A stretch of 54,748 bases of DNA, taken from a virus (lineage: Duplodnaviria; Heunggongvirae; Uroviricota; Caudoviricetes). Of this stretch, positions 51,001-54,000 are shown in pieces. Within the stretch, counting starts at the first letter, position 1. The number at the start of each line of letters is the position of its first letter. The position numbers were made by a program. Location of the stretch: IMG/VR virus record IMGVR_UViG_2909303794_000001. One strand, 5' to 3'.

Positions 51001-54000
51001 CTGTTAATTTTCTAATTGATGGACTGTATACAGGGATAAAAGGAGAGGGTATTGTCTGGACATTTCTGTTAGCATAATTGGAAATGTGCGTGAAAAAAAG
51101 CATAACAGACATCATGTGTTATGTATGTATTCAGAGTGCCCATAATTCACCAGTGCAGGGATAAATTGTAAAAAAATCGCAGTACGTCGTATGCAGAACG
51201 GTGCGGCGTACGCAGTTCCAGTGGACCGTCGCCTGTGATAACGGTCTTTGTGGAATAACCGTTGCGGGAGTTAGCTCCTGATCTGGACTGATTTTTCTCA
51301 TTCCCAAGATGGTGTGTCATCTCTGCATTGAGAGCGGCTTCAACGCTGAGCTTTTTCAGCAACCGATCAAACTGACTGAGGTCTTCTGAGGGGGCTGAGG
51401 TTTTTGGCCAGTTCGTTAGCAATACACCAGAAAAATTCTAAACGAGCCTGTACATAGATTTGTGTAATTGCCTGATTTTGATATGTTCAACCCAACATCA
51501 AATGAAGGTTAATTTATGGATGAAAAACAGTTACAGGCTATTTGTTTTGTGGGATTTTTAGGAAAAAGATATATTAATCCTTATTAATAATAGCTGTCAT
51601 CCATTTCAGCTATTATTTTTAAATAAATAAGTAGGTAAAGCTTAGACTCTTGTTTCTTGGATTATATCAACGATATCAACATGATTTAATGGATTATGAT
51701 GTGGTAAGTCATTGCTTTCGATATTGATGACTACATCCTCTGGACGTGGATGGCTTTGTCCAACAGGTACACCTTCTTCCATCGCTCGTATATCAGCCCC
51801 TGTTGCACGGGCAATATCTTCTTTATTGGGAAAAATGGCACCTTCTCTTGCATGCCACCATATACGAGGATAGTCAGTGAATCTGGCTTCACCTGTCTCG
51901 GCTTTGTTTAAATCTGCTAGCCCCAGAGTCGTACCAGCCCACCATAAAATAGTGTCTGGCTTTAATCCGGGGGTATTACACTGTATGGCATGCCCTGCTG
52001 CTTGCCCAACCATTGCGCCGATATGAGGGGCTAACATTGAGTCTACTCCGGGGATTTTGGATACTGCAAACCCTCCTGCGGCGCCAAGCGCATTTGCGGC
52101 AGCATTGGTAAGAACGGCATATTTAGTATTAGGGTTATCTAAATCCCATTTGAAATGTGCGCCAAACTCCAGCCCTAGAGTTGCCTGTAGTGGAGATGTA
52201 CCATATTTAAAATCTGCTTCTCCCGGTCTGATAACCCACTCCTCCGTGTAATTTGCTTTTGGCCCATCAGTAGTAAGAGGCGTTTCTCCAACAAGCTTCC
52301 ATCCATTTTCAGTTTTGACTATAGGAAGTTCCACACCATGATTACGAACCACTTGAGCTGTTAATCCAAACCATGGTATTGGGTCTTTTGGCTCGGTGGT
52401 TACCGTCGAAGTAGTGGCTGATGTTCCAGTCGATGCAATAGTCGACACTGCAGTGGATGCAGCGGATGTTGCAGCAGATGTTGCAGCAGATGTTGCAGCA
52501 GATGCAATAGTCGACACTGCAGTGGTTGATATATTACTGTTGCTTAATGCATTTTTTAACGGGCCAGGAAGGTCTTTAAAATTAAAACCTATTTCATCAT
52601 GCAGAGGGAATATCTGTAAAAAATAATTACCTGATGTAGGATGAATATCTGGTTTTACAATGTTTAGCTGGACACCATATTTACCAGAGATGCCTGAAAC
52701 GGAACTAGGTATCTCTAATGCCATTTGGGTAACATTGAATAAACCAAACATATCCAATGTTTTTTTTCCTATGGATCCTTCTTCAAGGTGAGGAGCTATA
52801 TATTCGTCTAGCCCTGAGAGCAGACCTTTATCTTTTATCAAGCTCAGTAGAGCTGTTGTTTCACCGCATTCCGGTGCATGTTGCTGTATATCATCTGGAA
52901 TATTAACAACAAATCCAGCTTGGCATCCTAGAGGTAATTCGGATTGCGGTATTTGTGTAGGGAGTATTTGTTCTGTTTGATGATGTTGATTGTTTTGTGA
53001 GGTGATTCCAGATTGTATGGTTGGTTGAATGTTCATAATAAATCCTTATTACATGTTTATATCCATTAATAATATCAATCCATTGATACTATTAGTGTCA
53101 CATATCCGATGTGGACAGCTTTAATATATAACTGTTTGAATGCTTGATTGATGTGACTTAGATCTCAAAATTAAGTTGTTAAATTTACCAGTTTATCGCT
53201 TGAACACTTAAAATAAATCATAAATGTTTCTGTTATTGTTTTTTTATAGTTTAAATTATTGTTGATTGTATAAGCTGATTACATTTTTACTCTAAGTGTT
53301 ATAAATATTTTATACTGATATTAGTCTTATTATATATTTTTTTAATGAAAATGAGCATAAAACTAAGACATATAATGCTTGGCAGCTTTATGCTCTTCTG
53401 ATTGGCTGTATGTTTGATGACAAAAAATTAGCGCAAGAGGACAAAAAATCACCTTGCGCTAATGCTCTGTCTCAGGTCACTAATACTATCTAAATAGTTG
53501 ATTCATAGTGACTGGGTATGTTGTGTTTTGTCGCATTTTGTAGTCTGTTATTTAACCGCAAATACGTATAACAATATGATTCTTAAATAATTTATATGAT
53601 TTTGTCATCCTTTAATAAGGAAAGGGTCATGATGAAGCTACTCATCATCGTGGTGCTCTTAGTCATAAGCTTCCCCGCTTACTAAGACTACCAGGGCGGG
53701 GGAAACCCCGCTCTACCCTCACTCCTGAAAGTATGCCTTCACGATAAGATTGTCAATCCGCCGGCTTTGTAGTCTGCGATCCTGCCAGCAAATATTCTTT
53801 GCGAGTCGTTACGCAATAATCACAGAGGAAACTATTTTATTCACGCGTTAGCGATAGACTGCATTCAGGGCGAAAGGAGGTAAGCCGATGATTTCAGCGG
53901 GACGCTGAAACGGGAAAGCCTCTCCCGGAGAAGAGGGCTTTTAATAAGGAAAGGGTGTACTGACCCCAAAAAGTTGGACAGTTAAACACGAGGCATATAG

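Follow-up and report, generated by a model that had tools for sequence, protein, structure and literature searches.

An ibsB/sibB-ibsA/sibA toxin-antitoxin locus bounded by the attachment site of an HK022-type prophage and by an IS150 fragment

The right-hand end of a viral DNA stretch of 54,748 nucleotides (IMG/VR record IMGVR_UViG_2909303794_000001, Caudoviricetes; the whole stretch is hereafter referred to as the window) carries a short hydrophobic open reading frame (ORF) of 18 codons, preceded by a strong ribosome-binding site and overlapped on the opposite strand by a match to the Sib family of antisense small RNAs (sRNAs). As judged by sequence comparison, the locus is the known Escherichia coli tandem ibsB/sibB-ibsA/sibA type I toxin-antitoxin module, which in K-12 is situated between mdtA and yegL. 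The module has very probably been trimmed on the left by a prophage and on the right by the insertion sequence (IS) IS150 and an IS629-like element, with predicted consequences for the expression of both toxin copies and for the length of one antitoxin RNA. The coordinates of the features are collected in Table 1.

The translation of the ORF, MMKLLIIVVLLVISFPAY, is identical to the E. coli K-12 toxin IbsB (b4668), and the same peptide is labelled as an Ibs family toxin in RefSeq; as a peptide of 18 residues is below the working size of protein-family and homology tools, identity with K-12 was used as the test. The Shine-Dalgarno sequence of ibsB, AAGGAAAGGG, occupies 53617-53626. On the minus strand, the Rfam model SIB_RNA (RF00113) matches 53614-53756 along its full length (model positions 1-147) with 142 bits (E = 2e-29), the gathering score being 56, and K-12 sibB attains an equal score of 142.0 bits. 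The matched interval is identical to K-12 sibB, including the promoter (-35 TTGACA at 53756-53751 and -10 TACTTT at 53733-53728, minus strand) and both target-recognition regions, and the transcription start of SibB is assigned to 53720 (minus strand) by homology from the K-12 annotation. The two regions were defined in SibC as TRD1, a loop complementary to the ORF, and TRD2, which is complementary to the Shine-Dalgarno sequence (PMC2943612), and are transferred here by homology.

An initial annotation of the window had proposed that the hydrophobic ORF with its strong ribosome-binding site is an Ibs toxin and that its antitoxin is an antisense Sib sRNA. Both identifications hold, and all the elements described in that annotation are real, with coordinates correct to a few bases. 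Alignment to the E. coli ibs/sib loci shows the window to correspond to K-12 ibsB/sibB followed by the upstream part of ibsA: from the ibsB Shine-Dalgarno sequence to that of ibsA (53614-53955), it matches K-12 and strain 2013C-3342 save for one single-nucleotide polymorphism (SNP). The SNP, the sole difference in 342 nt, is a C at 53762 in the window and an A in K-12 and 2013C-3342, and precedes the -35 hexamer of sibB by 6 nt. The window thus shares with the K-12 pairs ibsB/sibB and ibsA/sibA (b4668/b4437 and b4667/b4436; RF00113) the IbsB peptide, the DNA apart from the SNP and the Rfam score, but differs from them in that the sibB terminator and the ibsB promoter and 5' untranslated region (5'UTR) are swapped for the attR arm of a prophage, IS150 has removed the ibsA ORF along with the promoter and body of sibA, and mdtA and yegL do not adjoin the module. 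The number of ibs copies at this locus varies among strains, with 300490 and LR-31 carrying three tandem ibs ORFs from mdtA to yegL instead of two (at 3971-4688 in both extracted loci).

Table 1. Features of the window, followed by IS150 insertions at ibs loci of other strains (positions are those of the window unless a site is named)
Feature	Position	Strand	Basis or remarks
Lambdoid prophage with nleA	381-53613		int fragment identity, nleA, Rfam elements
Truncated int	about 381-1095	-	99.7% identity to int on the mdtA side of the FORC 064 prophage, which occupies the same site
nleA	51642-53036	-	Annotated at the orthologous position in 2013C-3342
tI/sib retroregulator hairpin (putative)	53419-53471	-	Aligned to the HK022 sib site; fold; U6 at 53427-53422
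P arm of HK022-type attP, phage side of attR	53472-53613		88% identity to the HK022 and mEp235 attP regions
attR crossover (overlap) AATAAGG	53614-53620		Three-way comparison of K-12 attB, FORC 064 attL and window attR
sibB	53614-53756	-	SIB_RNA match and K-12 annotation; body down to 53614 intact
ibsB ORF	53629-53685	+	18 aa plus stop, from the ATG at 53629 to the stop codon ending at 53685; peptide and DNA identical to K-12
Spacer and ibsA promoter, 5'UTR and Shine-Dalgarno sequence	53757-53955	+	Identity to K-12 and 2013C-3342, one SNP
sibA remnant, last 44 nt	53912-53955	-	Terminator hairpin 53919-53937 and Shine-Dalgarno-complementary stretch; without promoter and body
IS150 fragment	53956-54367	-	Right-end 412 nt; 100% identity to nt 1-412 of a complete 1443-bp IS150
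IS3-family element, left end	54368-54748	+	NCBIfam IS3 transposase N-terminus; orfA 54422-54748; window ends inside
IS150 in PEC41	sibA terminator loop		Target duplication CCC
IS150 in ET82	15 nt before the ibsB ATG		Target duplication AAT
IS150 in 300490 and LR-31	mdtA-proximal (third) ibs copy
IS150 in ATCC 8739	ibsD locus, between yqiK and hldE		Target duplication CAG

To the left of 53612, the window is unrelated to K-12 and identical to 2013C-3342 in the alignment. A three-way comparison of K-12 (attB, GGGGCCATAAATAAGGAAAGGGTCATG), strain FORC 064 (attL, GGGGCCTTAAATAAGGTAAGTTCC) and the window (attR, TCATCCTTTAATAAGGAAAGGGTCATG) places the junction in a 7-bp overlap, AATAAGG, which sits in the Shine-Dalgarno region of ibsB and at the same time in a 3' single-stranded stretch of sibB, where the RNA is unpaired between the last helix of its body and the terminator. 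FORC 064 shows the layout mdtA, int, xis, degraded lambdoid prophage, effector gene, ibsB, ibsA and yegL, with the sibB terminator found at attL. The K-12 sibB terminator, GGCCCCTTCCTCGGGAGGGGC, is absent from the window, and the P arm of the phage attachment site stands in its place. The attR-ibsB-ibsA-upstream arrangement was encountered in 77 of the 5426 complete E. coli genomes (about 1.4%).

The phage side of the junction is of the HK022 type. Compared with the attP/int/sib region of HK022 (X51962), the P arm, the P' arm and the sib hairpin are 88-92% identical (88% for 53418-53614 against HK022 and its relatives, in the correct orientation relative to int, and 92.5% for the P' arm at attL), and the integrase (Int) of FORC 064 is 96% identical to HK022 Int; the int fragment of the window shares 94.8% DNA identity with the torS-adjacent int of strain Rb-23. 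Sequences resembling Int arm sites, which we take to be of the lambda type, occur at 53474-53483 and 53505-53514. The differences from HK022 reside in the overlap, which in HK022 is AGGTGAA at the same position, and in the attachment site, which is torS-torT for HK022 and the ibsB Shine-Dalgarno region of ibsB/sibB here.

These comparisons suggest site-specific integration, in the 7-bp overlap AATAAGG, of a lambdoid prophage that carries nleA and has an integrase and attP arms of the HK022 type. The attR side would have kept the ibsB ORF and its Shine-Dalgarno sequence together with the promoter and the body of sibB, and the attL side next to mdtA would have taken the sibB terminator and, from ibsB, the promoter with the initial ~45 nt of the 5'UTR. 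The matching attL would be expected to read sibB terminator, TAAATAAGG, HK022-like P' arm and int. No explicit report of prophage integration at ibsB/sibB was found in the literature searched; one paper on Shiga toxin-producing E. coli (STEC) O145:H25 gives 'yegL' as the place where an effector prophage is integrated.

On the same comparison, attR lies inside the first copy of a repeated ribosome-binding sequence, a junction that the initial annotation had overlooked. The 16-mer TTAATAAGGAAAGGGT occurs exactly twice in the window (53612-53627 and 53941-53956), with none expected from 100 shuffles, and the full exact repeat is 17 nt long (53611-53627 and 53940-53956) with a spacing of 329 nt. 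K-12 ibsB has ATAAATAAGG where the window repeat carries the phage core CCTTTAATAAGG; the exactness of the repeat is, from its sequence, partly a coincidence arising from the resemblance of the phage core to an ibsA-type sequence. The better-matching ibsA was also considered as the attB and was rejected, since the top hits of a synthetic P arm-ibsA query were in two pieces, the P arm aligning at ibsB and the ibsA part after another 329 nt, and no direct P arm-ibsA junction occurred among these top hits. A free-phage attP with the reconstructed core was searched for in IMG/VR, where the exact 25-mer is absent; a 17-mer of this core gave six hits in unrelated metagenome contigs, which are probably due to chance. 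The attP relatives in the phage collection all carry the HK022 core.

The right boundary is formed by IS150. Its terminal repeat (TGTACTGACCCC...) starts at 53956, where the second 17-nt copy ends, and the ibsA ATG of 2013C-3342 and K-12 is found two bases after the position equivalent to 53955. The recurrence of the ribosome-binding sequence at about 53942 before an IS, and the truncation of a second tandem copy by that IS, both put forward in the initial annotation, are borne out by this arrangement, in which the start of ibsA/sibA is interrupted by IS150 2 nt before the ibsA ATG. The ibsA promoter region is retained up to the junction, with a start site predicted near 53894 and the Shine-Dalgarno sequence at 53946-53955, and the ORF is cut off; no second ibs ORF is present anywhere in the window. 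In K-12, sibA reaches 46 nt beyond the ibsA ATG. The IS150 fragment encodes the C-terminal 122 aa of the transposase at 53982-54350 on the minus strand (NCBIfam IS3 transposase NF033516, E = 5.5e-47), and RefSeq gives the same sequence the name IS150. It is interrupted at 54368 by a second IS3-family element, presumably IS629/IS1203-like as far as its end sequence indicates, in which an ALIL frameshift pseudoknot starts at 54703; neither the far end of IS150 nor a 3-bp target duplication lies within the window.

The order of events on this side would be the insertion of IS150 2 nt upstream of the ibsA ATG, followed later by the entry of the IS629-like element into IS150. If the IS150 insertion was a simple one, its far end would read ...GGGTGCAGTACA followed by GGGTTATGATGAAGCAC, with ibsA and sibA merely displaced. 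The same sibA-terminator/IS150 junction was absent from the complete genomes searched, in which the best full-length matches are 85-86% identical and have other insertion positions. The composite of IS150 and the IS629-like element was also compared with that of strain 65COLEC and is not the same, as the aligned junction of that strain is broken by a gap of 50 nt.

Upstream of ibsB, the initial annotation had noted a 10-bp inverted repeat with an adjacent A/T run. The repeat and the run are indeed present; they are not part of the toxin-antitoxin locus and belong to a hairpin of the HK022-type prophage. The arms, TTAGCGCAAG (53428-53437) and CTTGCGCTAA (53453-53462), are perfect over 10 nt and extend to arms of 19 nt (53419-53437 and 53453-53471), and the A6 on the plus strand at 53422-53427, directly before the left arm, is a U6 tail after the inner stem on the minus strand. 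The minus-strand RNA folds with -28.7 kcal/mol (z = -6.3), and the feature 'sib transcription processing site' of HK022 X51962 aligns to 53420-53469. By this alignment and fold, the inverted repeat is the lambdoid tI/sib retroregulator and is owned by the phage; the name 'sib' is shared with the Sib RNA by coincidence only. On the circular map of lambda, tI/sib follows int on the far side of attP and retroregulates int. In the present lysogen, in contrast to HK022 and lambda, the hairpin is found downstream of a host sRNA gene. Another inverted repeat, perfect over 10 nt (GATGACAAAA at 53416-53425 and TTTTGTCATC at 53600-53609), encloses the P arm between the tI tail and the core, and a 12-nt inverted pair with 92% complementarity (53353-53364 and 53384-53395) was observed in the AT-rich region upstream of nleA.

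The consequences for the toxin can be estimated from work on the homologous loci; published work on the toxicity of the peptide and its repression by the cognate Sib RNA concerns the K-12 paralogues. The ibsC transcription start is 18 nt beyond the 3' end of SibC, with the G residues of the Shine-Dalgarno sequence at +50 to +53 (Han et al., PMC2943612); homology would therefore put the promoter of ibsB, with about 45 nt of its 5'UTR, upstream of the crossover, on the attL side. With the start site extrapolated from ibsC and ibsD, ibsB would retain little of its 5'UTR and no native promoter, and would be silent or made only by read-in transcription. The ibsA copy, in turn, would be uncoupled from its own promoter and ribosome-binding site.

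The antitoxin would be affected differently. No intrinsic-terminator-like structure is found on the minus strand from 53614 to the tI hairpin, which is the first one downstream of sibB. Because no such structure precedes the strong tI hairpin and its U6, SibB is predicted to end at 53422-53427; transcribed from its unchanged promoter, it would run about 190 nt into the P arm and stop at tI/sib, giving an RNA of ~300 nt instead of 136 nt that keeps both regions pairing with the ibsB mRNA. SibC derivatives with the 3' part swapped for the rrnB terminator still repress ibsC, and TRD1 alone suffices (Han et al., PMC2943612); the extended SibB should therefore stay a competent antitoxin. The SIB_RNA score does not drop because the Rfam model stops short of the terminator: on K-12 it covers 2611-2753, and the gene is annotated to 2782, so that the model ends before the Sib terminator.

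Taken together, the sequence suggests a locus that is antitoxin-competent and toxin-poor. The initial annotation had raised the possibility of an intact toxin whose antitoxin is disrupted, which would matter for host fitness; such an unguarded toxin is unsupported for either copy because each insertion parts a toxin ORF from the promoter that served it, and SibB keeps its promoter and both target-recognition regions intact. Some considerations weigh against this account of the module. How long SibB is, that ibsB is silent and that transcription stops at tI are all inferred; Rho could act on the C-rich, G-poor transcript of the P arm and terminate SibB sooner; and Q-antiterminated late transcripts of the prophage, which share the strand of ibsB, could read into it. 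A promoter-like sequence, TTAACC-17-TATGAT, at 53552-53580 on the plus strand, about 45 nt upstream of ibsB, speaks neither for nor against it, because such matches are no commoner in the P arm than in shuffled sequence.

The position of IS150 in the window was compared with other genomes. Complete IS150 copies are present in one orientation relative to ibs and are scattered over ~35 nt, from the sib terminator loop to the ibs start codon (Table 1); in the extracted loci, their coordinates are 3396-4838, 3086-4528, 2511-3953, 2542-3984 and 2511-3953. With the window included, IS150 is found at at least five positions in three ibs paralogues, and an IS150 end joined to an ibs region occurs in about 14 complete genomes. 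This distribution looks like a target preference, or hot spot, of IS150 at the 5' regions of ibs genes. No explicit report of IS150 at ibs loci was found in the literature searched. Pedersen and Gerdes reportedly described in 1999 that hok/sok type I loci of K-12 are inactivated by nearby IS150 or IS186. The present locus is similar in that a chromosomal type I toxin is disabled by an IS beside the reading frame, with IS150 involved, and differs from hok/sok in that the toxin is an Ibs peptide of 18-19 aa and the insertions, all in one orientation, are concentrated in the interval from the antitoxin terminator to the start codon of the toxin.

Other explanations of the locus were weighed against the trimming of the module. 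The clustering of IS150 and the position of attR could be combined into a single view in which the ~35 nt from the Sib terminator to the ibs start are a preferred landing site of two unrelated mobile elements, IS150 and the HK022-type phage with its altered overlap AATAAGG, and in which the phage rewires the module; the host antitoxin RNA would then be terminated and processed by the phage sib/tI structure, and a promoterless ibsB with an intact ribosome-binding site would come under read-in from a prophage no longer able to excise. This combined view is considered doubtful.

An improbable explanation is that the prophage itself drives ibsB, from a promoter in the P arm or by Q-antiterminated late read-in, for example on induction of an excision-defective prophage, with the stability of SibB altered. 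The ibsB ORF and Shine-Dalgarno sequence are intact in 30 of the 30 lysogens listed (of 77), which may, however, merely reflect recent integration and a length of only 57 nt. The late operon and the tail genes are on the ibsB strand, and the truncated int would prevent the prophage from excising before late transcription; nevertheless, a convergent nleA, about 2.7 kb of DNA and two weak terminator-like sites separate the late genes from ibsB. The promoter-like hexamer pair at 53552-53580 would serve this explanation as a start, but its like occurs at the level of chance. The accompanying proposal that SibB now ends at an RNase III-sensitive sib structure of the phage is a prediction consistent with the predicted extended sib stem, and it is regarded as equally improbable.

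Transcription in the opposite sense, in which the strong constitutive sibB promoter passes a leaky tI and adds to the expression of nleA, so that the site benefits the effector, appears very unlikely. Both sibB (start 53720) and nleA (53036-51642) are on the minus strand, nleA being 680 nt downstream, with nothing but the tI hairpin and an AT-rich region in between. However, tI, a hairpin followed by U6, is predicted to terminate strongly, nleA probably has a promoter of its own in the AT-rich DNA ahead of it, and the P arm with tI is also present in HK022-type phages without nleA, which makes the arrangement generic. Least credible of all is an unmodified functional ibsB/sibB beside an IS-truncated copy, with the upstream DNA as strain-specific intergenic sequence and the inverted repeat as part of the locus: the identity of the ORF, the Shine-Dalgarno sequence and the sibB promoter and body to K-12 and the full-length Rfam match would agree with it, but the model ends before the Sib terminator and is blind to its loss, leftward of 53612 the DNA matches the attP arm and sib site of HK022 instead of the terminator of K-12 sibB or the promoter of ibsB, and the reciprocal attL in FORC 064 bears the sibB terminator, so that it is already refuted at the sequence level by the comparisons with K-12, FORC 064 and HK022.

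At the left end of the window, the int gene is cut at 380/381 by an IS629-like end, after about 240 codons; as its catalytic C-terminus is missing, the prophage should be unable to excise. Two IS629-like ends bracket the window (1-380 and 54368-54748) in inverted orientation, both running outward, and an inversion or a contig break at these copies is possible. In 2013C-3342 (NZ_CP027766.1, 2109000-2158000), the prophage with its nleA end at ibsB has its integrase beside yccA and not mdtA, which implies a chromosomal rearrangement between two prophages. Exact matches to the NleA protein of the window were found only in contigs of 1.9-4 kb, none of which reaches ibsB.

Further features of the prophage were observed away from the toxin-antitoxin locus. 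Downstream of the Q region there are a tRNA (18928-19000), a match to the STnc100 sRNA (19853-20025) and an ORF of 616 aa (20163-22013), which sits where Stx-type phages have their SASA-family esterase; stx genes are absent between the tRNA, the STnc100 match and this ORF (18928-22013). The early-left operon of the prophage carries a lambda CIII thermoregulator recognised by Rfam (6153-6211, minus strand, 84 bits).

Integration of prophages into small-RNA genes is reportedly known from ssrA and from the ryeA/ryeB locus of Salmonella. As at those sites, the 3' part of an sRNA gene serves here as the attB. The phages at ssrA and ryeA/ryeB usually rebuild the 3' end of the RNA from attP, whereas the Sib terminator is not rebuilt here, and the attB of the present prophage is also the ribosome-binding site of the toxin gene that the RNA opposes.

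The toxin-antitoxin pair itself is textbook K-12 biology, and its disruption by mobile elements is of an ordinary kind. An attachment site inside a type I toxin-antitoxin module and a hot spot of IS150 at the 5' regions of ibs genes may, however, be new. Both this hot spot and the retargeting of an HK022-type integration module to a site where ribosomes bind the mRNA of a type I toxin could be of modest interest to those who study type I toxin-antitoxin systems and mobile elements. The locus also carries a caution for annotation, in that an Rfam hit of full length and full score, together with an intact ORF, hid the loss of the toxin promoter and of the antitoxin terminator, because the prophage junction lies inside the locus. 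Both the attachment site and the IS150 insertions would represent natural experiments on the parts of the Sib RNA and the ibs mRNA that are dispensable in vivo.

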